DNA from: a virus
DNA length: 10,288 bases
Strand: one strand, 5' to 3'
Virus genome (UHGV): UHGV-0355879
Shown piece after piece: positions 1 to 10,288 of the stretch. The notes under the pieces are model-generated. The model was not told the origin of the DNA. It ran no database searches and saw only the letters and a list, made by a program, of their open reading frames with translations. Numbering within the stretch: the stretch's first letter is position 1; every line of letters begins with the position of its first letter. The position numbers and the translations under genes are program-made.

Positions 1-1150
1 GATATAACTCATGCAAGTTATTAAACATTACTTTGAAAGCACTACTTATTATTTCATCTGATGTTGCTGAGAATGCCTTTATCAAATGCTTGCTAAAAGA
101 TTGGTTAATTTTTGATTTTTGTAACTCACTACTCAGCATAGCTAACAAGTCAAAATCTTTTAAAGATTCCTTTATCTCTTCATATTCCTCTATCGCATTT
201 GCTGAGTAAGGATCGAATCTTATAGGAAGACTCATAAATTTAGCCTTCATAGGAGATTCTTCATCTTCATCATTACCATGCAACTTAGCTTTAGTTACTG
301 AAAGGAACTCTTCTTTAGTAACAATATTGGTTTTTTGTTTCTGTAAAGTTAGCCCTTCATTTTCCATCAGTTTTTTACTAAGCAAAGTTAAAATCTTATG
401 AGCATCCTCTCTAGAGTTACAAAAAATAACAAAGTCGTCGACATAACGCTTATAGTTGATTCTATTCATAGACAATAATTTATCAATAGAATCTAGAGCT
501 AGTTCTGCTAATATTCTAGAGGCAGGACATCCAACTGGTACTCCATATGATTTTGTTTCACTAAATGTCTGTAGTAATTTCTTGATTTTCCCAGAGTAAT
601 CTTTATTGGGGTCGACTCTATCTAACGCATTTTCTAAACGGTGGTGATAAATACGCGGATAGAAATCTGCTATATCGCATGTAAGTACATACTTTATTTC
701 ATCGTTAGAACATTCAGAGATACTGTCTTCTTGATATTTTCTCCAAGAGATCTCTTTATCAAAAAGAGAACCATCAGCAAGGTTTGGTTTAAAGCGATAT
801 GAATAAACCTGCGTTTTAGTAGATCTATTCCTTTCAATATCATCAGCGATTTTTAAAACTAACCCAAGAAAAAAAGCATTCCAGAATGGATCAATTTGGG
901 TCGCCCACCTGTAACCATAATAACCAATACTTGAAAAGCTATTAATTATGTTTGGTGGAATCTCGATCCTTTTATTTTCAAAGTCATTAAATGTTTGCAT
1001 TAATGCAGTTTTTACTTTCTCCTTATCATCTTCAAATAACCGACTTTCAAATGGGTAAGGGAAAATATCTGTATCGCCGTGCTTTATAATATTTTCCAAT
1101 GCAAGCTCAAAGCAATTTTCTAGTTTACTACTATCAAACTCGTTACTCAT
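1..1150 (-). CDS. Reverse transcriptase, Abi/DRT-like (partial; C-terminal part lies beyond the left window edge)
   Basis: Absent from the ORF track because it runs off the edge. Minus-strand ATG at 1150..1148, open with no stop through position 1 (383 codons). Translation starts MSNEFDSSKLENCFELALEN. RT motif A-like TCDIADFYPRI (codons 650..676), motif B-like GVPVGCPASRILAELAL and catalytic motif C RYVDDFVIF (YVDD codons 434..445) were checked at nucleotide level. Start overlaps the integrase stop (ATGAGTAA, 1143..1150). Confidence 0.6.
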   Translation of the reverse strand, partial: MSNEFDSSKLENCFELALENIIKHGDTDIFPYPFESRLFEDDKEKVKTALMQTFNDFENKRIEIPPNIINSFSSIGYYGYRWATQIDPFWNAFFLGLVLKIADDIERNRSTKTQVYSYRFKPNLADGSLFDKEISWRKYQEDSISECSNDEIKYVLTCDIADFYPRIYHHRLENALDRVDPNKDYSGKIKKLLQTFSETKSYGVPVGCPASRILAELALDSIDKLLSMNRINYKRYVDDFVIFCNSREDAHKILTLLSKKLMENEGLTLQKQKTNIVTKEEFLSVTKAKLHGNDEDEESPMKAKFMSLPIRFDPYSANAIEEYEEIKESLKDFDLLAMLSSELQKSKINQSFSKHLIKAFSATSDEIISSAFKVMFNNLHELY

Positions 1151-2327
1151 TCACATTCTCCTTAATAAAAATATAATCTGAATACCACTGCATCATATCA
1201 CGGCGTTTATCAATATATTGAGCATGATTATACGTACCTCTAATATTATTCTTATCTATATGAGCAAGCTGTATTTCTATCCAAGCCGAATCATATCCTT
1301 TTTCGTGGAGGATAGTAGATAAGGAATGTCGAAATCCATGACCAGTAAGTTTTCCACCATAACCAATACGCTTGATAACTTGGTTAATACTCGCCTCACT
1401 CATAGGCTTGTTCGGATCGTTCCGCCCCGGAAAAACATAACTATACTTCCCTGTCATCATCTTGAGTTCATTTAGCAAATCTAACGCTTGAGTCGACAAA
1501 GGCACAAGGTGTGATCTGCGCATTTTCATCCTTTCAGCAGGAATTTCCCAAATAGCGTTATCTAAATCAAATTCTGACCATAATGCCGCACGTAATTCGA
1601 TGGTTCTAACACCTGTAATCATGAGCAATTTCGTGGCAATCAGGACAAGCCGACTTCCGGTATATCCGTTTAAGGCGCGAAGAAAATCAGGTATCTCATT
1701 AGCCTTTAAGAACGGGAAATGATTTGATTGGTGTACATTGAGGGCGCTTGAAAGATCCGCAGCAGGGTTAAACTCAGCCCTTCCAGTAGCAATGGCATAG
1801 CGGAAAACTTCTGAGCATCGCTGCCGAACTTTGCGCATTTTTTCTAATGCACCGCGCTTTTCGATTTTACGCAGCACATTAAGCAGTTCTAGCGGTTTAA
1901 TCTCTCCCACTGGCCTTGTTCCCACATAAGGAAAAATGTCGTTCTTAAACGCTTCCATGATGTCTGATGCATATCCCGCCGACCATTTGGTAGACTTCTG
2001 TTGATGCCACTCTCTGGCTATCTTTTCGAAGGCGTTCTCTGACTCTGTTTGCAGAGCCAGCTTTTGCTCTTTTCGAACCTCACTAGGGTTCTTTCCTTCT
2101 GCCACAAGTTTTCGAGCTTCATCACGACGGGAACGAGCATCAGCAAGAGTGATCGTTGGGTAAACACCAAGCGAGATCATTTTGGGTTTACCGGCATAGC
2201 GATAACGAAATCGCCAGCTTTTACTTCCATTTGGCTCTACAAGTAAAGACAACCCTTGCCCATCCCCAAGTGTATAGGCTTTAGCTTCAGGTTTAGCACG
2301 GCGAATCTGCATATCATTTAGGGGCAT
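1143..2327 (-). CDS. int: Tyrosine integrase, P4 / CP4-57 (IntA-like) family
   Basis: 394-aa ORF. N-terminal arm-binding region (MPLNDMQIRRAKPEAKAYTLGDGQGLSLLVEPNGSKSWRFRYRY) is typical of P4-type integrases. C-terminal catalytic signature present: R in GVRTIELRAALW, HGFRHSL box, LAHIDKNNIRGTYNHAQY with catalytic Tyr. Recalled E. coli IntA shares long stretches (AERMKMRRSHLVPLS vs AARMKMNRDHTVPLS; MMQWYSDY vs MMQWWADL). Confidence 0.85.
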   Translation of the reverse strand: MPLNDMQIRRAKPEAKAYTLGDGQGLSLLVEPNGSKSWRFRYRYAGKPKMISLGVYPTITLADARSRRDEARKLVAEGKNPSEVRKEQKLALQTESENAFEKIAREWHQQKSTKWSAGYASDIMEAFKNDIFPYVGTRPVGEIKPLELLNVLRKIEKRGALEKMRKVRQRCSEVFRYAIATGRAEFNPAADLSSALNVHQSNHFPFLKANEIPDFLRALNGYTGSRLVLIATKLLMITGVRTIELRAALWSEFDLDNAIWEIPAERMKMRRSHLVPLSTQALDLLNELKMMTGKYSYVFPGRNDPNKPMSEASINQVIKRIGYGGKLTGHGFRHSLSTILHEKGYDSAWIEIQLAHIDKNNIRGTYNHAQYIDKRRDMMQWYSDYIFIKENVNE

Positions 2328-2649: not shown

Positions 2650-3864
2650 ATGAAATACAAGCCGGATCAATACATCATCTCTGATAGTTACGGAGTTTAT
2701 TACGTCAGGATCTCAATTCCTATATGGCTTCGTAATGCATTTGGTGGAAGAAAAACTCTCGTCCGTAGTCTGAACACTTCCGATCTTCGTGTGGCACGTA
2801 GGAAGCGTGATGTTATAGCAGACGAGTTTCACCACATCAGGCAAATTGCAGAGCCACCAAAACCGGACAGCCTGCAGGACACAATCAGCTATCTAAAGAG
2901 CGTTGCTAAGTACGCAAAAGCTGCCCCGAAAGCATCAGCGCCAATTATCTCCCAATGCCCCTCTCTGAATAAGATGTTGGAGATTTACCTCACGCATAAC
3001 GCTGATCGCCTGAAAATTGGAACATTAAGCAAGACCAGGAAAGCCGTAGAACTGTTTCTGAATTACCTGCGAAAGAAGGATGTGGAACTAAACGATATCA
3101 ACCGTACCACCGTTACAGGCTGGCTTGATCATCTCCGAGAAACAAAGGCAGTCCAAACAGTGGCTAACTATCTTTCTGCAATGGCAAACATTCTCGATCT
3201 TGCCTCTTCCCGATACCAGGACGCCCCACAGCTGGAAAGTAACGTATTCAGAGGGCATAAACTCAACACAGCGCAGAGCCGCCAGAGTTACGAGGCATTC
3301 ACGGACGAAGAAATTACGAAGCTCATTAGCACGTTTAACAAGTTAGGAGAGGACGAATTAAGGGATTTAAGCGCCATAGCCGCTTATAGCGGAATGCGCA
3401 TCAATGAAATAGCCAGTTTGAAATCTGACAATATCCGTGAAGTTGAGGGGGTGTTATGTTTCGATGTATTGGAAGGAAAGACAGCTAACGCTTCCAGGCT
3501 AATCCCATGCCATAGTGCGATTAAAACAATGGTCCTGGAACGCTGCCAGAAGCCGCACAACGGCTTTTTATTTTACCGTGCAAGTGTGACCAAGAGAGAG
3601 GACGGCAAGCGCTCCTCATGGCACGTAAACCGCTTTGGACGGCTTAAACGCGATATTCTCCCAGGGCAAGAAAACAAGGTGTTTCACTCGTACCGCCATG
3701 CCGTGATCAGTAAGCTAAACGCCGCCGGAGTGGATGAATCTCGTATTGCCTTGCTCGCGGGCCACTCATTTGGAGAAACTGAATCTTTCAAGACGTATTC
3801 GAAATCCGTTCCTGAGCGAATAGTGAAGGAACTAAAAGAATATATCGAATTAATCAAATATTAA
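2650..3864 (+). CDS. Tyrosine-type site-specific recombinase / integrase (second, unrelated to the P4-type one)
   Basis: 404-aa ORF, GGTGGA-like RBS 4-5 nt upstream. N-terminus (YYVRISIPIWLRNAFGGRKTLVRSLNTSDLRVARRKRDVIADEF) matches the arm-binding pattern of genomic-island integrases. Catalytic residues in SGMRINEIASL (Arg), HSYRHAVISKL (His-x-x-Arg), LLAGHSFGETESFKTYSK (His, Tyr). Confidence 0.8.
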   Translation: MKYKPDQYIISDSYGVYYVRISIPIWLRNAFGGRKTLVRSLNTSDLRVARRKRDVIADEFHHIRQIAEPPKPDSLQDTISYLKSVAKYAKAAPKASAPIISQCPSLNKMLEIYLTHNADRLKIGTLSKTRKAVELFLNYLRKKDVELNDINRTTVTGWLDHLRETKAVQTVANYLSAMANILDLASSRYQDAPQLESNVFRGHKLNTAQSRQSYEAFTDEEITKLISTFNKLGEDELRDLSAIAAYSGMRINEIASLKSDNIREVEGVLCFDVLEGKTANASRLIPCHSAIKTMVLERCQKPHNGFLFYRASVTKREDGKRSSWHVNRFGRLKRDILPGQENKVFHSYRHAVISKLNAAGVDESRIALLAGHSFGETESFKTYSKSVPERIVKELKEYIELIKY

Positions 3865-3878
3865 AATACCTTAAATGT

Positions 3879-3908
3879 GAGGGGGAATCCCCCTCTATTT
3901 TATTTATA
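3879..3908 (+). terminator. Rho-independent terminator, probably bidirectional, between convergent genes
   Basis: Perfect 7-bp G/C stem GAGGGGG (3879..3885), loop AAT, CCCCCTC (3889..3895), then T-rich TATTTTATTTATA. Lies 15 nt after the integrase stop; the A/T-rich flank on the other side lets it serve the minus-strand gene ending at 3900. Confidence 0.55.
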
Positions 3909-4178
3909 CCATACACTTTGCATATATTGCGATGTTTCAGATGAAATATTATACCAATATGCATAATTATTTGTTGCATCTACAACTATCAATTTATCAT
4001 CACTATCCATCGCTTTATGAACTATTTGCGATGCCTGTTCAGAATTGTAATGTGAATTAACATACCAATTTGATTCTGTAACTTTGACTGCTACGCCCAA
4101 TGATTTAATAGCTTCGTAAACTGCTGGATAGTTTTTAGTTTTGATCAAGTCATAGGTTACAAAAAGATTGTTAGCCAT
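3900..4178 (-). CDS. Hypothetical small protein (92 aa), AT-rich
   Basis: ORF with GGAGAG RBS 7 nt upstream of ATG at 4178. Local G+C about 25% (hand count of 3901..3960), unlike neighbouring genes. No family recognised with confidence. Confidence 0.5.
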   Translation of the reverse strand: MANNLFVTYDLIKTKNYPAVYEAIKSLGVAVKVTESNWYVNSHYNSEQASQIVHKAMDSDDKLIVVDATNNYAYWYNISSETSQYMQSVWYK

Positions 4179-4236: not shown

Positions 4237-4365
4237 TTATTTCTTAGCTTTCTTGGTAGGGATTTTGATAGTTTCAGTTACCGTAGTGTCAGGATGTCTT
4301 TTAGCTTCAATGGGCTTAACAAACTGACCAGTTATCGCAGAACGAACTACTGTTTTCTTAGCCAT
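4237..4365 (-). CDS. Hypothetical small basic protein (42 aa; MAKKTVVRSAITGQFVKPIEAKRHPDTTVTETIKIPTKKAKK)
   Basis: Internal ATG (4365..4363) of track ORF 4237..4467, preceded by GAGGT RBS 5 nt upstream. The longer 76-aa form would start inside the upstream terminator hairpin and lacks an RBS. Lys-rich, low complexity; could be non-coding. Confidence 0.3.
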   Translation of the reverse strand: MAKKTVVRSAITGQFVKPIEAKRHPDTTVTETIKIPTKKAKK

Positions 4366-4442
4366 AAAACACCTCATCTTGGAGATAAAGAGTGAACTGC
4401 TTACCCTTTTAAGAATAAGGGACAAACGAAGCGGCGTCAAAG

Positions 4443-4491
4443 AAAAAACACCACATATACACATCATTTACAAAACAAGCGCAATATGTGG
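4443..4491 (-). terminator. Candidate intrinsic terminator downstream of the 623-aa gene
   Basis: 8-bp stem CCACATAT (4451..4458) / ATATGTGG (4484..4491) with a long 25-nt loop, followed on the minus strand by TGTTTTTTCT (plus-strand A-run 4443..4448). Begins 26 nt after the stop at 4517. Confidence 0.35.
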
Positions 4492-4516: not shown

Positions 4517-6388
4517 TCACCCCCCTGTGCTGCTCTGACCGCTCAAGGCTGACAAGGTGAGCGACTGTGTAAAACTGGCTTGTGAGGCTCTCGCCTGGAA
4601 ATCAATGTAATCGCTCAGCCTTGAGCTATCGCTGGCGATAGTTAGCGGAACAGACGCTTCAAGATTGAGATTGAATACAGGTGCAAGATTGTACGCTGGC
4701 GCACTATTGGTGCTGGTTAGGGATGATATAGCAGAATCACGAAGCGCTCCCCCTTTCAGAGAATCACCATTCAGGCCGTATTGTTCTACCGCTGTCCCTG
4801 TAGGCTGATCATCTATCCCTAACCAACCTTTAACGGCATGACCTACACTACGGCTGTCCCACCCTGTCTTGTCCTGCACCCAATCGGCAGCACTGTTGGC
4901 ACTTCCTGTAACAGCACCATCATACAAACTCTGTGCCGCTGGCTTATCGCTACCAGTGAACCATTGAGGGAAACGTTCTTTCAGCCCTGCATTGATATCA
5001 CTCACAACACTGGAAATCTCACCCACAAACCCAGTGATTTCTTTCGAGAGATTGCCTAAGCCCTCTCCAAGCATTCCCGCCGCTTCGGTGATAATTTTGG
5101 TTTTCCTTACCAGATCGTCGCCCCCATCGGCAAAGCCTTTCATCCAGCCTGTAAACAACTGATTGTCTATTCCATTCATCAGATTACCCATAGCAACACT
5201 CAAATCGCCATACTCATAAACCTGCTTGATCATTTCGTCGTTCAGCGTCTGACCGGACTCAATGAGAGTTCTTAGCGTCTTGTTATACTCTGCACCGTTG
5301 TTCATGAACATATCGGTGTAGTGCATCAGGTCATCACCTAAACTCTCAATCAGCGTACCAATCTGAGCCTGTGACATACCACGGCGTTGCCCTTCATTCA
5401 CCGTAGCTTGAACAAAATCGAGTGGTGAATCTTGGAACTTGGAAATCTGATCCTTACTCCATCCAAATTTGTTCATTATCGACGTAATGCCACCATCCCC
5501 ACCCTTCCATTCGCCATTCTTCATTTGAGCATCGTTAACAGTCATGGCGAGGCGTTCACGCACATCTTTCATGTTATCGACGGCTTTTGAGGTATTAGCT
5601 GAATCAACACCGTGTTGCTGTCCCCAGGCCACCATCGTTTTTATGGCGTTTGGGTTGGTTTTCACACGTTCACTCATTCTCACCAGTTCGAGGTTATCAT
5701 TCCCTTTGTCAATAATTCGCTGCCCCACTCCGAGGGAGCCAGCCGTTAACGCAAGGCTTCCTAATACCCCACCACCGACGATAGGAGCATTCCCGCCCTT
5801 CTGAGCCTTTAGCTTAGTGGCTGCTGCGGCATACTGGGTACGCTGTGCCTGTGTCACTTTGGCTTGCTGTGCGGCTTCTCTGCGTAACAGGGTTACACGC
5901 TCACGAATAGATGCGTTCATACGGGCACTGGTCAGATTGCCTTTGGCAAATTCCTCTGTTTGCTGACGTATGAAACGTAACGCTTCATATTGAGATTTAG
6001 GATCAAGTCCGTATTTACCTTTAATTCCTGACACTTGTAGCCCTGCATGGCGAAGTTTAAGCTCGGCTGTCTCTTGGTGCTTCTGTAGCTGCTGCTTCGC
6101 TTTCAGATTGGCCTTTTCATCCCTGGCTTTCTGCTTCTCTGCCGCACGTTGGGCTTTCATTTCCTTCGTATCACGAGGTTTATCATTAAAACGTGCATCA
6201 TCGGCTTGTTGACGAGCTTTCTGTCTGCGCTGCTTCTGAGCCTGGAAGCGAATCTTGGGATCGGCTATTTTCTGGAAGTGCTTTTGAAGGTTATCCGCTG
6301 CGGCTTTAGCCAGAGCAATGCTCTGCTTATCCACCACGAATGTAACCGTATTGCGGATCTGACTGACCGAAATATCAAGCATCGCCAC
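4517..6388 (-). CDS. Large phage structural-like protein, tail tape-measure-like (tentative)
   Basis: 623-aa ORF. Lys/Gln/Arg/Ala-rich predicted coiled-coil N-terminal third (KQRRQKARQQADDARFNDKPRDTKEMKAQRAAEKQKARDEKANLKAKQQLQKHQETAELKLRHAGLQ), then a Gly-rich hydrophobic segment (GGNAPIVGGGVLGSLALTAGSLGVGQ) and repeated G-x-G stretches. The track start is GTG at 6388; an in-frame ATG at 6382 with GAAAGG 8 nt upstream is the more likely start and makes an ATGCTTGA overlap with the preceding gene's stop. Confidence 0.65.
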   Translation of the reverse strand: MAMLDISVSQIRNTVTFVVDKQSIALAKAAADNLQKHFQKIADPKIRFQAQKQRRQKARQQADDARFNDKPRDTKEMKAQRAAEKQKARDEKANLKAKQQLQKHQETAELKLRHAGLQVSGIKGKYGLDPKSQYEALRFIRQQTEEFAKGNLTSARMNASIRERVTLLRREAAQQAKVTQAQRTQYAAAATKLKAQKGGNAPIVGGGVLGSLALTAGSLGVGQRIIDKGNDNLELVRMSERVKTNPNAIKTMVAWGQQHGVDSANTSKAVDNMKDVRERLAMTVNDAQMKNGEWKGGDGGITSIMNKFGWSKDQISKFQDSPLDFVQATVNEGQRRGMSQAQIGTLIESLGDDLMHYTDMFMNNGAEYNKTLRTLIESGQTLNDEMIKQVYEYGDLSVAMGNLMNGIDNQLFTGWMKGFADGGDDLVRKTKIITEAAGMLGEGLGNLSKEITGFVGEISSVVSDINAGLKERFPQWFTGSDKPAAQSLYDGAVTGSANSAADWVQDKTGWDSRSVGHAVKGWLGIDDQPTGTAVEQYGLNGDSLKGGALRDSAISSLTSTNSAPAYNLAPVFNLNLEASVPLTIASDSSRLSDYIDFQARASQASFTQSLTLSALSGQSSTGG

Positions 6389-6572
6389 CGCCTTTCTTAC
6401 TCACCAGATAATTAAGTGCATCTGATACACTACGCCCACGATGTAATAACTGACGTAGATGACCGTGATCTATTTCAAGCACACGACACACTCCCGCCAG
6501 ATTTAATAACTCTTCTGCTGTTTCAGCATTTACGGCGAGGTGAAGCCCCGCGCTTTTTACAATCACTTGCAT
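6375..6572 (-). CDS. Hypothetical protein (65 aa)
   Basis: ORF with AGAGGA RBS about 8 nt upstream of ATG at 6572; immediately downstream of the capsid-operon terminator; stop overlaps the start of the 623-aa gene. Same orientation as the surrounding operon. Confidence 0.45.
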   Translation of the reverse strand: MQVIVKSAGLHLAVNAETAEELLNLAGVCRVLEIDHGHLRQLLHRGRSVSDALNYLVSKKGGGDA

Positions 6573-6596: not shown

Positions 6597-6630
6597 TAAA
6601 AAAGGGCGGGAACACTGGGGAGATGTTCCC
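6597..6630 (-). terminator. Rho-independent terminator downstream of the major capsid gene
   Basis: 7-bp stem GGGAACA (6608..6614) / TGTTCCC (6624..6630) with 9-nt loop; on the minus strand followed by GCCC then T7 (plus-strand A-run 6597..6603). About 65 nt after the capsid stop (6694). Confidence 0.5.
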
Positions 6631-6693
6631 AACGTTCACACGCCCTATTCAAAAGCCTGATTATTGCCTGCGGGTCAGGCTCCCGCTTGCTCA

Positions 6694-7725
6694 TTAAGCA
6701 GTGATGGTGATCTTCACTTGCATACCTAACGCATGGTTCACTGGTAATGCGCTGTTTTCGTGCATAACGTGGTAAGCATCGCCGCGCTCGCTCAGGTAGC
6801 CCCAAGAGTAGTATTCAGCAGGTGCAGCATCGATCAGCGCGAAGTTGCCAGAGGCAGCGCCGTAGATGTTCTGATAAGCATTTGTGCCTTTACTGAATAC
6901 CGGAACCGCCACCATGTCAGCATCATCTGGCATCTGTGCAAGGATCAGCGGATCTGTCACTTTAACAATGTCGATAGGCGCACCAGGTAGGCTAAACGTA
7001 CTAACACCAGGGAGAAGCTCGTGACGCTGGTAGAATAGGTTACGGTCGTCATATGGCGCTACATACTGGAACGCCTTAGACATACTGTCAGAGAAGCGAA
7101 TCTGGCTAAATGCAGCAGGTTTAGCGAATACGATCACTCGTTCAATCTGTCCAGCCAATCCACCTGCGGCAGCCTGAACTTTGTCTAAGATGGCATCAAA
7201 ATCCTGTGCCGCTGTCGCTGTGCTCACGCTGGCTGTCATTGGCACCACACCGAACAGTTCAGCATAAGAGATCAGTAGGTCATCAGTTGCAGGCGTATAA
7301 ACTTCACCTTTGAACAGAGCACGGGCCAGGTAGGATTCACGGGTACGAAGATAGGCAATCTTATGTTTCCCTGTGTACTCGGTGTACAGGTCGGTAACGG
7401 TTTGCTCGTAGTCCGTGCCTTGCACCCTTTTCCCTTGTACGTCTACTGGTTTGAAGGTGTCTTCCCTCGCAAACCAAGGGATCTCCACCAAATATTCTTT
7501 ACCATTCTGACGCGCGGTAGTGTCGTGGCTTGATGAATAACGACTCTGCGGGGTGTTAAACAGGCTGTAGTTATCATCCAGAAGCTGTGTCACCACCACT
7601 TTCGGATTCTGAACACCTACCCCGTCGAAGAGGTCGAGAGCATTCATAAGATAGTTACGTTCCGGCAGAGCCTGGAAGATTGGCGCTAAATCGACCATCT
7701 CACGCCCAATTGCGATTTTACTCAT
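6694..7725 (-). CDS. Phage major capsid protein, lambda gpE-like family (tentative)
   Basis: 343-aa ORF (lambda E is 341 aa) with AAGGAAG RBS 8 nt upstream. Sits directly after a roughly 120-aa decoration-like gene, the D-E order of lambda-type head modules. Assignment is by size, context and composition, not by verified alignment. Confidence 0.55.
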   Translation of the reverse strand: MSKIAIGREMVDLAPIFQALPERNYLMNALDLFDGVGVQNPKVVVTQLLDDNYSLFNTPQSRYSSSHDTTARQNGKEYLVEIPWFAREDTFKPVDVQGKRVQGTDYEQTVTDLYTEYTGKHKIAYLRTRESYLARALFKGEVYTPATDDLLISYAELFGVVPMTASVSTATAAQDFDAILDKVQAAAGGLAGQIERVIVFAKPAAFSQIRFSDSMSKAFQYVAPYDDRNLFYQRHELLPGVSTFSLPGAPIDIVKVTDPLILAQMPDDADMVAVPVFSKGTNAYQNIYGAASGNFALIDAAPAEYYSWGYLSERGDAYHVMHENSALPVNHALGMQVKITITA

Positions 7726-7741
7726 TATTTATCTTCCTTGA

Positions 7742-8101
7742 TTAAGAGGTGAAGAATGGACGGCATACGAACCCTTTGGATTCGAGCGTGGTGATAGCTG
7801 CGGCGTGATTAGCTGCGTGCAGGTTGTCGGCTTTCAGTGCTACGAAGCTGCCAACATTAGGCGCACGTAGGACATTCACGGTTTTACCGTCGCCAGCACT
7901 CACGAAATCACTTACCACCACAAAGGCATCATCGCCGGAGGTGTATAGAGCGCCATCAGCGCCGATAACATCGCCGCATTCAATATCTGCTGGCAGGTCG
8001 AAAACACGGCCTTCTACGACTGCAAAAGAATCAGTGGCGTAGCTCACTACGTCAGTGAAACTCTTACGAATTGGGAAAAGTTCGGTTAGGTCTACAATCA
8101 T
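7742..8101 (-). CDS. Head decoration protein-like (lambda gpD-like, tentative)
   Basis: 119-aa beta-rich, Gly/Val/Ala/Asp-rich ORF immediately upstream of the capsid gene (stop 7742, capsid ATG 7725). Start overlaps the preceding ORF stop (ATGA at 8098..8101). Confidence 0.45.
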   Translation of the reverse strand: MIVDLTELFPIRKSFTDVVSYATDSFAVVEGRVFDLPADIECGDVIGADGALYTSGDDAFVVVSDFVSAGDGKTVNVLRAPNVGSFVALKADNLHAANHAAAITTLESKGFVCRPFFTS

Positions 8102-8313
8102 TGTTGTTTGATTTCCTTGGATTTGATTGCGATCCGTTCCTGCATACTAAGTTGAGGTGTGTCCTCAGAAGGGAAATACTGGTCTACAGCTTTTTCTATT
8201 TCTTCAACGGTACATCCTGCCATTTCAGCCACTTTAGCTATTAACTCAGGATTAACTTGAATCACTTCGGATTTGTATTTTAGGATTCGGTCGCGATTGT
8301 TTATTAAGAACAT
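8098..8313 (-). CDS. Hypothetical protein (71 aa), first gene of the head operon
   Basis: ATG at 8313 preceded by AAGGAA with a 7-nt spacer; stop coupled to the next gene by an ATGA overlap. Confidence 0.5.
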   Translation of the reverse strand: MFLINNRDRILKYKSEVIQVNPELIAKVAEMAGCTVEEIEKAVDQYFPSEDTPQLSMQERIAIKSKEIKQQ

Positions 8314-8384
8314 TGTGTTGTTCCTTCGCGTTATAACTGCGTTTATCCTTCCATTAATAACGGAAGTGTTACATGCAGATTGTT

Positions 8385-8406
8385 AAAAAGGGGCGATTAA
8401 GCCCCT
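8385..8406 (-). terminator. Intrinsic terminator / attenuator upstream of the head operon
   Basis: Stem AGGGGC (8389..8394) / GCCCCT (8401..8406), loop GATTAA; read on the minus strand it is followed by TTTT (plus-strand A-run 8385..8389). Lies about 75 nt upstream of the 71-aa gene start. Confidence 0.45.
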
Positions 8407-8932
8407 GGAGAATATGCCCTTGTTAGAAAGCATTCTGTTAAAATCATTTTCGTTTCGGAGGATTATGATGTTAAAGAAAGGTTTCTTGAAAAAATGAAGG
8501 GCGCAACTGTTACGAATAACAGAAGTAGGATCGCCCGTCATTGCTCCCACTTCAAAACAGAAGCCCTTCTGTCATGGCGAGAAGTGGGAATGGAATTTCT
8601 TATCACCCTGGAATAGTAATAAGAGATTGCCAGCCTGAACGTAACTACCACTGACGGCGTTTATTCAGTCTGACTGCTTATAATCCTAACGGGGTTATAA
8701 GGTTTAGAGCACGGAATATGCTCTCTGAAAGAGAATGTGCGCGGTGATTGTTCGTTACCACCCGACACAAGTGGGAACGCCCGCGCCACCCTTTGGAACT
8801 AAACACAACAAAGGAAAACAACCAGCTTTCAGAGAGGATATTCAATGGGAGAGAGCGCCGCCTATGGGAAACGGCATTCTCAGGGAGTGCGTATTGTTAT
8901 ACGAGGGTGGAGTGATTCTAATACCTACCCTA
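8407..8932 (-). ncRNA. Candidate long untranslated leader or non-coding transcript (hypothetical)
   Basis: Roughly 525 nt between a near-consensus promoter (8939..8967) and a terminator (8385..8406), no minus-strand ORF of 65 aa or more. Contains several stem-loops: two-tier hairpin 8545..8589, hairpin 8677..8701, hairpin 8706..8724, hairpin 8739..8786. A 9-bp direct repeat AAGTGGGAA (8582..8590, 8769..8777) sits in two of the stems. Confidence 0.2.
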
Positions 8933-8938
8933 TAACTT

Positions 8939-8967
8939 ATTATGACACAAATAGCACAATATGTCAA
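8939..8967 (-). promoter_or_regulatory. Sigma70-type promoter on the minus strand (-35 TTGACA, 17-bp spacer, -10 CATAAT)
   Basis: Minus-strand TTGACA (plus 8962..8967), exactly 17 nt of spacer, then CATAAT (plus 8939..8944). Lies 16 bp downstream of the stop of the 113-aa gene and points toward the head operon. Confidence 0.45.
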
Positions 8968-8982
8968 GATATTTCGTAATAT

Positions 8983-9321
8983 TTATGTTATAGCGCATTC
9001 TTCCGCGATCTGGATGGCAAGCTCTCCGAGTTCAACGGTGATGTGTTCCATAGCGAGGGCAAGCTCCTCCATATCATTGGCAATGCGCCACGCCTGATCC
9101 ACGGTGACGGTATCCCCGTTCATCTGCACCAGGTGCTCTACAGCAGCATTCCAGTGTTCAAGGGCGGTGATTGCCTGTTCAGTGTATTGCAGCGCTTCCA
9201 GGAGCGCGGAGGGCGTTCTCTCACACCACGCCCTATTAACAAGCCACAGGGCTGGTAGATGCCAAATATCGTGGAAATAGTTAATTAGGGTGTTCATGGT
9301 GTCCATAGTTTTATTATTCAT
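8983..9321 (-). CDS. Hypothetical acidic helical protein (113 aa)
   Basis: Shortened from track ORF 8983..9468. ATG at 9321 is preceded by AAGGAA with a 7-nt spacer (as for the 71-aa gene) and overlaps the upstream gene's stop (ATGAATAA), whereas the 161-aa form would overlap that gene by about 155 nt. Confidence 0.5.
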   Translation of the reverse strand: MNNKTMDTMNTLINYFHDIWHLPALWLVNRAWCERTPSALLEALQYTEQAITALEHWNAAVEHLVQMNGDTVTVDQAWRIANDMEELALAMEHITVELGELAIQIAEECAIT

Positions 9322-9697
9322 TGTTGTTTTCCTTGTCGTCAAAGAGAATATCAAAATCTTGTATGTGGTGAGATAAGCCGTTAGTTTGGGAATACCCCAC
9401 CCAGTCAACATAGTTTTCTGCGTATAGCTGCCACTTCTTAAGATTCGATGAATCAACACGGTATTCACGGCGGCGGCGTGGTTTATAGAAGACGTTATCC
9501 GAAGATGCTAAAACATCCTGCAATAGTTCAAACTCTGCCCCTACGGGCACCGTTGCAGGGTATTCTATTATTTCGGTGATCCATTCTCCTGGAATAGACT
9601 CTCGTGCGAGGTCTTGTAGAGAAGAGGTGTATTTACGTTTGCTGGCGCGAGTGGCTTTTTCGATTCTAACAATGTTACTTCGTTCTTTTCGTCCCAT
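9314..9697 (-). CDS. Hypothetical protein (127 aa)
   Basis: ORF with GAGGA RBS upstream of ATG at 9697; basic N-terminus (MGRKERSNIVRIEKATRASKRKY), acidic C-terminus; stop coupled to the next gene. Confidence 0.5.
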   Translation of the reverse strand: MGRKERSNIVRIEKATRASKRKYTSSLQDLARESIPGEWITEIIEYPATVPVGAEFELLQDVLASSDNVFYKPRRRREYRVDSSNLKKWQLYAENYVDWVGYSQTNGLSHHIQDFDILFDDKENNNE

Positions 9698-9806: not shown

Positions 9807-10091
9807 TTAGAAATTAGAGTAGATAAATTCTACATTGTCTCGTTCGATGTGTTTCAGCGTGAATGATAGATAATGGCTTTCATCGTCGATATCGATCACA
9901 CCAATGTTGCGCAGCGCACGAAGCCAGAATCTGATCCCGTTATCACTTACACTGGATTTATCAGATAGCTCTCCGTAAGAAATTTTAGTTTTTCTGCCCT
10001 TCCAGAACCAGATAAGCGCATAATAAACGCCCTTCCCGCTATCGTTGATCTGTATCTGGTTTGTGTTGTTCAATTTTATGTATTGTATCAA
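9807..10091 (-). CDS. Putative winged-helix DNA-binding regulator (94 aa)
   Basis: TTG start at 10091 with strong AGGAGG RBS 5 nt upstream; GISYGELSDKSSVSDNGIRFWLRALRNIGVI resembles a winged-HTH recognition region. Family not identified. Confidence 0.45.
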   Translation of the reverse strand: MIQYIKLNNTNQIQINDSGKGVYYALIWFWKGRKTKISYGELSDKSSVSDNGIRFWLRALRNIGVIDIDDESHYLSFTLKHIERDNVEFIYSNF

Positions 10092-10104: not shown

Positions 10105-10288
10105 TTAGTTCCAGTGGCGTTGTATTGTGGCGATCCCTTTCTTCATTAGTTCAGCCGTTTGTCTTTGGGTCAATCCTTTGGATTTGTGTTCCTGTACTTC
10201 TTTACGGGTGTTGTTACCTTTAACTTTCTTTCTCACTTTCCCAAATTTCAGACATTCAATCTTTGCTCCAGGGAAATAATGCTCTTTG
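10105..10288 (-). CDS. C-terminal part of a protein ending in an HTH-like segment (N-terminus beyond the right window edge)
   Basis: Minus-strand frame open from the window edge to TAA at 10105..10107; translates ...KEHYFPGAKIECLKFGKVRKKVKGNNTRKEVQEHKSKGLTQRQTAELMKKGIATIQRHWN. The final 25 residues resemble a short C-terminal HTH. Not in the ORF track because it runs off the edge. Confidence 0.45.
   Translation of the reverse strand, partial: KEHYFPGAKIECLKFGKVRKKVKGNNTRKEVQEHKSKGLTQRQTAELMKKGIATIQRHWN

Follow-up and report, generated by a model that had tools for sequence, protein, structure and literature searches.

What can a mobile element do with a capsid gene when it has neither the portal through which a capsid is filled nor the terminase that fills it? 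The question is raised by an integrated island in the 10,288-nucleotide (nt) stretch of DNA UHGV-0355879, which we call the window and to whose positions all coordinates refer, except that loci of relatives carry L numbers and coordinates of their own. We argue, with a probability of roughly 0.55, that the island belongs to a family of satellites that supply their own capsid and their own tail tape measure and take the rest of the virion from a helper phage. That it is a functional mobile element with a deliberately partial set of virion genes we regard as highly probable, and it displays the general features of a satellite, being a small integrative element with attachment (att) sites, an integrase, its own replication module and an incomplete virion gene set. 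An initial annotation of the same DNA had suggested a satellite-type or degenerate element. The first of these stands as the best reading, in which we infer helper dependence and particle formation; the second has to be abandoned for the reasons given below.

The list of open reading frames (ORFs) places all genes of the head and tape-measure block on the minus strand. The three tightly coupled genes recognized at 6694-8313 by the initial annotation are indeed there. The first gene of the operon (8098-8313), kept in most relatives, encodes a protein of 71 amino acids (aa) and is coupled by an ATGA stop/start to the gene for a 119-aa capsid decoration (cement) protein with a predicted gpD-type fold (7742-8101); 16 nt further on, a distance that includes the ribosome-binding site AAGGAAG, begins the gene for the predicted 343-aa major capsid protein (6694-7725; phrog_29). 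The module had been described as one of head genes only, which holds for these three genes but not for the block as a whole, because the block runs on into a 65-aa gene (6375-6572, identified from the sequence, with a 61-66-aa gene at the same position in relatives) and a homologue of tail tape measures (4517-6382), the start of which is overlapped by the stop of the 65-aa gene (ATGCTTGA). A sequence scan found a terminator-like hairpin followed by a T-run 3' of the capsid gene (6607-6631, minus strand; free energy (dG) -11.4 kcal/mol, z -3.2).

That the second and third genes form a pair of decoration-like and E-like capsid proteins was borne out by family and structure comparisons. The 343-aa protein is a full-length match to the suggested family PF03864 (Phage_cap_E), scoring 51.5 bits where the cut-off is 22.9 (E = 1e-13) and aligning its residues 10-340 to positions 2-328 of the 329-position profile, and its AlphaFold model (predicted local distance difference test score 81, predicted template-modelling score 0.79), which includes a 34-residue helix at residues 106-139, shows the HK97 fold that had been anticipated. 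The top Foldseek match of this model is the coat protein of PhiTE (E = 6e-19, template-modelling score 0.70-0.73) and the second-best is the coat of ICP1; further matches are to Bas63, Sf14, YSD1, Chi and lambda gpE, all of them lambda-E-class coats. On its modeled structure, the protein is thus an HK97-fold capsid protein of the lambda-E class. The 119-aa protein likewise adopts a gpD-like fold, while no Pfam or PHROG family was matched by its sequence, so that it could not be assigned to PF02924.

The sequence relatives of the capsid protein point to one group of phages. Among solved structures, the best sequence match of the island capsid profile, over the full length, is Phi92_gp124 (E = 2.6e-18), phi92 being a member of the same subfamily as phAPEC8, the Stephanstirmvirinae; the N-terminal 200 residues of the profile are also matched, with nearly the strength of Phi92_gp124, by a 344-aa chain named “Capsid protein” in PDB entry 9zbi_A (E = 6e-18). 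In hhalign, the capsid profile aligns to the phAPEC8-type capsid protein, likewise a member of PF03864 (333 aa in the phage versus 343 aa in the island), with 98% probability and 19% identity. The relationship of the head proteins becomes visible only with profile and fold methods, since neither the capsid nor the decoration protein had a significant BLASTP match to the phAPEC8-type proteins; a tblastn search of phages with the capsid protein returned just two weak matches, both to aquatic phages. The phAPEC8-type phage has its 132-aa decoration gene followed by its 333-aa capsid gene, the order seen in the island, and a decoration gene lies directly upstream of the E-class capsid gene in the window, the phage and all relatives examined. 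The two decoration proteins themselves do not appear similar (7% probability in hhalign), the ending ...FTS at the C-terminus being the sole feature they have in common. In some strains (CRE1540, for example) the capsid gene is labeled merely “hypothetical protein.”

A tie to the same phages is also provided by the tape-measure homologue (phrog_16051, 4e-97; 621 aa if begun at ATG 6382, 623 aa if begun at GTG 6388). It aligns over its full length with the tape measure of Phapecoctavirus anhysbys (32% identity, BLASTP 2e-90), a gene that in this phage follows those of the sheath, tube and chaperone and precedes those of the baseplate. The parts best conserved between the two are the N-terminus (MLDISVSQIRNTVTFVVDKQS vs MLEINASKISNVVTFKVDKNS) and the C-terminus (LTLSALSGQSSTGG vs LSLSTLSGQSNTGG). 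A hidden Markov model (HMM) of the island tape-measure family matched the phage genome with E = 1.3e-110. All 143 phage records matched by the tape measure are Stephanstirmvirinae-type myoviruses, going by their names, their taxonomy as far as seen and their size (~145-150 kb). In the related E. coli variant of the island, the first 90-120 nt of the gene are 78-85% identical at the DNA level to the tape-measure genes of phi92-type phages. RefSeq names the homologue “cell envelope integrity protein TolA,” a mislabel presumably caused by the Lys/Glu/Ala/Gln-rich coiled coil of its N-terminal third.

Some relatives carry more of the phage tail than this. A Dit-like gene (PF21821, 3.7e-31) follows the tape measure in Buttiauxella (L012 13227-13901) and in E. 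coli CRE1540 (L056 13011-13688); its product is 71% identical, and its DNA ~70% identical over 384 nt, to the anhysbys gene located directly 3' of the tape measure. Such identity indicates a fairly recent exchange with virulent Stephanstirmvirinae phages. Genes for a tube, sheath, chaperone or baseplate are absent from the island, and of tail genes beside the tape measure only the Dit-like one occurs, in the relatives mentioned. A survey of recombination had reported tape-measure gene homology between a virulent coliphage and E. coli M11, at a place where no prophage was predicted (PMC11069274). E. coli M11 carries a member of the island family. Stephanstirmvirinae are the only phage lineage with the island's shared proteins, and large virulent myoviruses of the phi92/phAPEC8 type are therefore probably the helpers to be considered.

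Is this gene set a frozen accident of one strain, or a stable design? In searches of 5.8 billion proteins, the capsid protein found no more than 52 clusters and its profile no more than 57, all of PF03864, ranging from 98% to 32% identity, and all from Enterobacterales where a name was given. Every contig examined shows the island layout, and none a complete prophage. The relatives, ~45 loci altogether (13 from genomes, 29 from IMG/VR and, in addition, several metagenome contigs 11-14 kb long), share the order small recombinase, variable replication module, genes of 94, 127 and 112 aa, a long spacer, and then the head block, which continues as 71-aa gene, decoration, capsid, 61-66-aa gene, tape measure, variable slot and integrase. 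Even the most distant member, with 32% capsid identity, has a decoration-like gene, a capsid gene, a 63-aa gene, a 629-aa tape-measure-like gene and an integrase in this same order. The size of the element is narrow (11-14 kb), and one meets this reduced gene set, in this order, across many genera and at various sites. The initial annotation had left room for portal, protease and terminase genes just outside the window; none is present, either in the complete island between its att repeats or at the ~45 related loci, and no unexplained ORF of portal or terminase size lies inside the element at any locus. The complete 13.5-kb island, as found in E. coli XYEH3934, also lacks any neck, sheath, tube, fibre or lysis gene.

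All genes of the block are intact and under purifying selection. The ratio of nonsynonymous to synonymous substitution rates (dN/dS) of the capsid gene is 0.06-0.15, that of the decoration gene about 0.10-0.16 (three comparisons out of four), that of the 71-aa gene 0.18-0.26 and that of the tape-measure gene 0.19-0.25. Among strains, the distribution of the island is patchy. When the capsid/tape-measure module of the related E. coli variant was compared with 5426 complete E. coli genomes, 544 matched, always in the chromosome, and the matched genes are annotated there only as “hypothetical protein” (x4) and “major capsid protein.”

Tape measures diverge faster than capsid proteins and have been shuffled between islands. 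The L013 locus, compared with the window, has a capsid protein 55% identical and a 65-aa protein and tape measure 97-98% identical, and L008 has a capsid protein 96% identical and a 65-aa protein 39% identical; such reshuffling (seen in L008, L013 and L026 relative to the window) implies recombination breakpoints between the head genes and the tape-measure pair. The 65-aa protein, which matches no Pfam or PHROG family, is always found paired with a tape measure, the most distant relative included, and it is possibly a chaperone of it. The tape measure is missing only in the very divergent members L003/L004 and L048. In the Pantoea-type islands L003 (9566-11108) and L004 its position is taken by the Kiwa genes KwaA/KwaB, so anti-phage cargo can occupy the slot that the capsid gene and the integrase enclose. 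We considered whether the tape measure, too, is mere hotspot cargo of this kind and rejected the idea, as it is present in nearly all relatives, the most distant one included. Some island copies have been inactivated, to judge from split tape-measure genes and insertion sequences (IS): the gene is split in L007 (11349-15647) by an insert of ~2.4 kb with IS-like transposase ORFs and in L040 and L046 (11328-14490) by a ~1.2-kb interruption, and CFSAN051542 has IS1 within the matched island region.

The course of events that we envisage would begin with infection by a phi92/phAPEC8-type phage, upon which the island would excise and replicate. The block would be expressed by read-through of the terminator that ends a 550-nt structured RNA upstream of the head operon (described below), a small, decorated shell of island protein would be built on the portal and scaffold/protease of the helper, possibly aided by the 71-aa protein, and the helper terminase would fill this shell with island DNA. 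The island tape measure, together with Dit where present, would enter the tails built by the helper. Candidate benefits of a private tape measure are tails committed to satellite heads and escape from a block on injection. A cognate decoration protein would be useful only on an expanded and filled shell, which to our mind argues for real capsids and not for a decoy. As for the 71-aa protein, it might be a mini-scaffold (CpmB-like) or a size factor. The lead is a weak one from sequence: its last 16 residues align with the last residues of the 371-aa putative scaffold of the phAPEC8-type phage (L002 3297-4412), not significantly (E 0.069, probability 0.8% in hhalign). The resemblance is that of the lysine-rich, amphipathic C-terminal tail of the 71-aa family (…ERIAIKSKEIKQQ, …DLINAKAQQIKQSKEK) to the extreme C-terminus of the scaffold (…SELISQKAAELKKAQKQ). 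The most specific version of our proposal, in which these are satellites of virulent myoviruses that form chimeric virions, their own decorated shell and tape measure (plus Dit) being fitted into a stolen portal, packaging motor and contractile tail, with the block gated by an RNA in one subfamily, is one that we offer tentatively, as somewhat less probable than not.

Several observations weigh against a satellite with its own shell and tape measure. No evidence of packaging was found: neither a circular or attP-junction contig nor terminal overlaps were found among the 11-14-kb metagenome contigs, and the IMG/VR matches look like integrated copies. An excisionase or AlpA was not recognized in any ORF tested. 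Only two island families, or three with Dit, have homologues in the phage, HMMs of all the others having found nothing in the phage genome, and with so few families shared the true helper could be a relative that is as yet unsequenced. Nor is there DNA similarity to the phage that would mark a shared pac or cos site, only 14-21-mers expected by chance. The capsid protein is so diverged, with only 19% identity to the phAPEC8-type protein, that it might not be compatible with the portal and scaffold of the helper. Finally, we know of no precedent for a tape measure encoded by a satellite.

Could the same facts be explained otherwise? Loss of portal, protease, terminase and most tail genes from a lambda-E-type prophage would leave a fragment of a normal morphogenesis cluster, which is all that the island has, and its location at thrW would suit a remnant as well. 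However, remnants do not account for a reduced set that recurs across genera and sites down to 32% capsid identity, for intact genes with dN/dS well below 1, for the lack of prophage genes or of pseudogenes of terminase, portal and lysis functions, or for 57 clusters that all belong to the same close capsid clade, with no complete prophage among the contigs examined; we consider decay from such a prophage very improbable, and the degenerate element of the initial annotation falls with it. To an equally small degree do we credit a domesticated, encapsulin-like HK97 compartment or a host function akin to gene-transfer agents. A capsid without a portal does recall encapsulins, one of which appears at rank 41 of the fold matches, but by sequence and fold alike the protein is closest to phage coats of the lambda-E class, there was no match to a cargo or encapsulin family, and the gene lies on a mobile element, patchily distributed among strains, that also has att sites, an integrase, a decoration protein and a tape measure.

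More serious are two explanations in which the shell genes act on the phage. In one, the island defends its host: its capsid and tape measure would be mimics that poison or decoy the assembly of Stephanstirmvirinae, and the island would not be packaged at all. This would accommodate the absence of packaging evidence, the occurrence of Kiwa in the position of the tape measure and the presence, in tandem with the island, of a P4-like satellite with a retron in a defence hotspot, and satellites and islands commonly interfere with assembly (PMC11364771). A decoy, however, needs no cognate decoration protein, no replication module and no narrow size of 11-14 kb; a capsid gene conserved over its full length at its low dN/dS looks like one for a working shell protein, and, instead of diverging from the phage, the Dit-like gene and both ends of the tape measure have remained compatible with it. 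We therefore judge a pure defence island unlikely. In the other, the island capsid protein would co-assemble with the helper coat, at pentamer positions for example, and so force the formation of small capsids, while the decoration protein and tape measure hijack or interfere. The precedent is Ccm of SaPIbov5, a capsid homologue in a satellite devoid of portal and terminase that is found in the pentamers of T=4 shells (PMC8569155), and the similar length and common Pfam family of the island and phage capsid proteins are in keeping with it. Mixed capsomers are made less plausible by the 19% identity, though, and a decoration protein encoded alongside the capsid protein in every relative examined fits a homogeneous shell better, so that to this remodeling we assign a rather smaller chance still. 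Of the readings discussed, a satellite that builds its own shell and brings its own tape measure is thus the one that we prefer.

Which of the known satellites would such an element resemble? The phage-inducible chromosomal islands that form capsids (cf-PICIs) are, like it, small islands of Enterobacterales with their own HK97-fold capsid, an integrase and a replication module, and they need a helper for other parts of the virion (bioRxiv 10.1101/2022.09.08.507074; PMC10085698). In contrast to the island, they possess a portal, protease, head-tail adaptor/connector, terS/terL and HNH, none of which it has. Tail genes are “forbidden” in the cf-PICI and PICI detection models of SatelliteFinder (PMC10085698), whereas the island has a tail tape measure (and Dit in some relatives). 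It also lacks AlpA, and the PICI-type primase next to the integrase is replaced by a DEAD/ResIII helicase on the far side; moreover, its probable helpers are virulent 150-kb myoviruses, whereas those of cf-PICIs are temperate phages of ~40 kb. Gram-negative PICIs are defined by int, alpA and pri-rep, and their detection model forbids tail genes as well as portal and head-tail connector genes; the island has the integrase but no alpA, and its tape measure is a tail gene. With SaPIbov5 and its Ccm it shares the lack of portal and terminase and the possession of a distant homologue of the helper capsid protein, which there gives satellite-sized capsids (PMC5052747, PMC8569155). Ccm is, however, a single gene of a Gram-positive PICI whose product occupies only the pentamers of a shell of helper coat (PMC8569155), whereas the island capsid protein, which has diverged much further from the coat of its candidate helper (19% identity), comes together with a decoration protein, a tape measure and the product of a small gene upstream.

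The PICI-like elements (PLEs) of Vibrio cholerae provide the parallel of a satellite that exploits a large virulent myovirus, ICP1, with a lambda-E-class coat, from which PLE capsids are made (PMC10945586); here, too, a small element (13-18 kb) confronts a helper of 125-150 kb. PLEs nevertheless build their small capsids from helper coat by means of the external scaffold TcaP and have no capsid, decoration or tape-measure gene of their own, and no sequence relationship to them was seen, PLE HMMs not having been run. P4-like elements are similar in being Enterobacterales satellites of ~11-13 kb with a tRNA-type att site, a decoration protein (Psu in P4) and hotspots of defence genes (PMC8628076, PMC9122126), and satellite hotspots are known to carry defence genes (PMC9122126). 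Unlike the island, P4 relies on the coat of its helper P2 and the external scaffold Sid and lacks an HK97 coat or tape measure of its own, and none of the P4 core genes alpha, Delta, Sid, Psu, Epsilon and AlpA was found in the island. Compared with the phages phi92, phAPEC8 and anhysbys themselves, the island shares the order of decoration and capsid genes, PF03864, a full-length tape measure and, in some relatives, the succession of tape measure and Dit, but it holds only these two or three families of an apparatus that in the phage comprises terminase, portal, 371-aa putative scaffold, neck, sheath, tube, chaperone, baseplate and fibres. The island is thus not a member of cf-PICI, PICI or P4; by analogy, it would work most like a cross between the cf-PICI and SaPIbov5 Ccm strategies that, like PLE, targets a large virulent myovirus.

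Full-text literature searches returned no description of such an island family or of its transfer by a helper, although descriptions outside the searched literature may exist; most likely, the family is so far undescribed. Nearest to a description comes the remark on tape-measure homology with E. coli M11 (PMC11069274). A commentary of December 2025 counts P4, PICIs, cf-PICIs and V. cholerae PICI-like elements as the earlier satellites and the jumbo-phage satellite I55 as a new one. I55 was considered and is unrelated to the island.

If our proposal is correct, a satellite that supplies a protein of tail length or ejection would be known for the first time, and it would represent a third strategy by which satellites obtain capsids, between the theft of coat (P4, PICI, PLE) and the encoding of a whole head (cf-PICI). 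About one-tenth of complete E. coli genomes, and many of Klebsiella, Enterobacter and Citrobacter, would then carry a satellite that current detectors miss, because the PICI and cf-PICI models of SatelliteFinder forbid tail genes and annotation pipelines label the genes “hypothetical” or “TolA.” Isolation and testing of the likely helpers, virulent Stephanstirmvirinae, is under way with phage therapy and biocontrol in view; on the same condition, islands resident in the host could lower phage yield, spread defence cargo such as Kiwa or exchange tail genes with these phages.

How the block may be switched on is suggested by the region between the 112-aa and 71-aa genes. A near-consensus sigma-70 promoter on the minus strand (8939-8967; TTGACA, 17 nt, TG-n-CATAAT; 11 of 12 consensus positions, with an extended -10) is followed by ~620 nt that contain no conserved ORF. 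In 14 aligned relatives, the same place shows a -35 of the TTGACA type and a -10 rich in A/T, with neither hexamer being invariant. What the initial annotation had called a non-coding leader turns out to be a conserved structured RNA of ~550 nt (8384-8932, minus strand) with a promoter and terminator of its own, the latter being an intrinsic terminator at its end, made of a GC hairpin (8406-8389) and a T-run (dG -11.5, z -3.3), ~70 nt before the 71-aa gene. The promoter drives the RNA, and probably the head operon as well.

The spacer that contains the RNA retains 67-93% nucleotide identity among islands whose capsid proteins are 54-57% identical, and the lengths of its indels are not divisible by three. 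Of the 76 pairs that RNAalifold predicts, 28 show compensatory double changes. On the predicted structure, which was derived from the same alignment as the one tested, 94.6% of cells are paired versus 39-46% with the partners slid, and the covariation score is 0.33 versus 0.06-0.10 in the slid controls; none of 500 shuffles did as well as the observed alignment on four of five measures, and 31 of 500 did so on the fifth (further pair types). With a covariance model built on a core of 179 nt, the RNA is detected in 18 sources, seven of them outside the training set, and in each case it lies upstream of the 71-aa gene and on the strand of the operon. The RNA is limited to one subfamily of islands: it was not found in the related E. 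coli variant, the spacer of which is shorter (350 nt), and the core model had no match in the phage genome. Since a terminator intervenes between the promoter and the head operon, the simplest interpretation is that we are dealing with a riboregulated leader or a separate RNA gene, and that read-through would control expression of the capsid. A search of Rfam 15 gave no match above noise, and the RNA is a candidate for a new class of riboregulator. Structural genes of the phAPEC8-type phage are also preceded by sigma-70-like promoters (TTGACA, ~17 nt, TAnnnT; L002 1055-1155, 2722-2814 and 13159-13284), one of which (…TGTGTTACAAT) resembles the extended -10 of the island (…TGTGTCATAAT), perhaps as a mere consequence of the shared consensus.

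The boundaries of the island can be drawn with precision. Its left end is marked by an att-type direct repeat of 25 nt (2491-2515), a copy of the 3' end of the tRNA-Thr gene thrW that occurs once in the window, where none is expected by chance. The same 25-mer flanks the 13.5-kb island of XYEH3934 (L001 15001 and 28529, the latter inside thrW), which lies between a yagP remnant and tRNA-Thr thrW; homology to XYEH3934 begins exactly at 2491, and from there on the window is 99.9-100% identical to islands in several E. coli strains. In K-12, thrW is the site of the cryptic prophage CP4-6; yagP and pao genes are found on the flanks. The DNA of the whole window matched none of 50,697 phage records, so that it is not a known phage.

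Next to the left repeat lies, on the plus strand, the gene for a tyrosine integrase of 404 aa (2650-3864; PF00589 4.6e-11, PF20172 (DUF6538) 6.9e-11, phrog_1 5e-34), kept at the same end of the element in relatives. The variable slot between it and the tape measure is occupied by a gene for a 92-aa protein (3900-4178, minus strand; phrog_1090 1e-21), which is present in few relatives, others having a gene of 155-160 aa there, and by a partly conserved small ORF of 76 aa (4237-4467, minus strand; RefSeq gives a 42-aa version). On the far side of the structured RNA, and likewise on the minus strand, follow the genes for a conserved 112-aa protein (8983-9321 as called by RefSeq, the longest ORF reaching 9468 with 161 aa) and a conserved 127-aa protein found in nearly all relatives (9314-9697), neither with a family match, and for a 94-aa protein with weak helix-turn-helix (HTH)/DnaD-like signals (9807-10091; weak HTH_72, HTH_11 and phrog_7498). 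The last of these adjoins the helicase in relatives and goes with the replication module. The window edge cuts the gene of that DEAD/ResIII-type helicase, a putative replication protein, so that only its 3' end is included (10105-10288, minus strand); the full gene encodes 482-494 aa (L001 22615-24099: PF00270 5e-06, PF04851 1.4e-05, phrog_2467 1.6e-36), and relatives exchange the helicase module for a DUF6945 + HTH_36 pair or a 519-aa protein.

Beyond the window, the complete XYEH3934 island also encodes a ribbon-helix-helix protein, a 193-aa tyrosine recombinase and a few cargo genes. PADLOC reported only sub-threshold noise for the island proteins. The second recombinase (186-193 aa) consists of the catalytic domain only and sits at the opposite end from the integrase (L001 25738-26319; also in L003, L005, L007 and others). 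Between it and the replication genes lies a conserved gap of 1.2-1.8 kb, free of ORFs, which may be an origin or packaging region. Positions 1-2490 of the window belong to another element, of which they form the end. It is a P4-like satellite whose integrase is of the P4 type (1143-2327, minus strand) and which in related strains also carries a retron-type reverse transcriptase, Psu, Delta, Icd and alpha primase. Two unrelated satellites thus adjoin one another in tandem at the same thrW att site.

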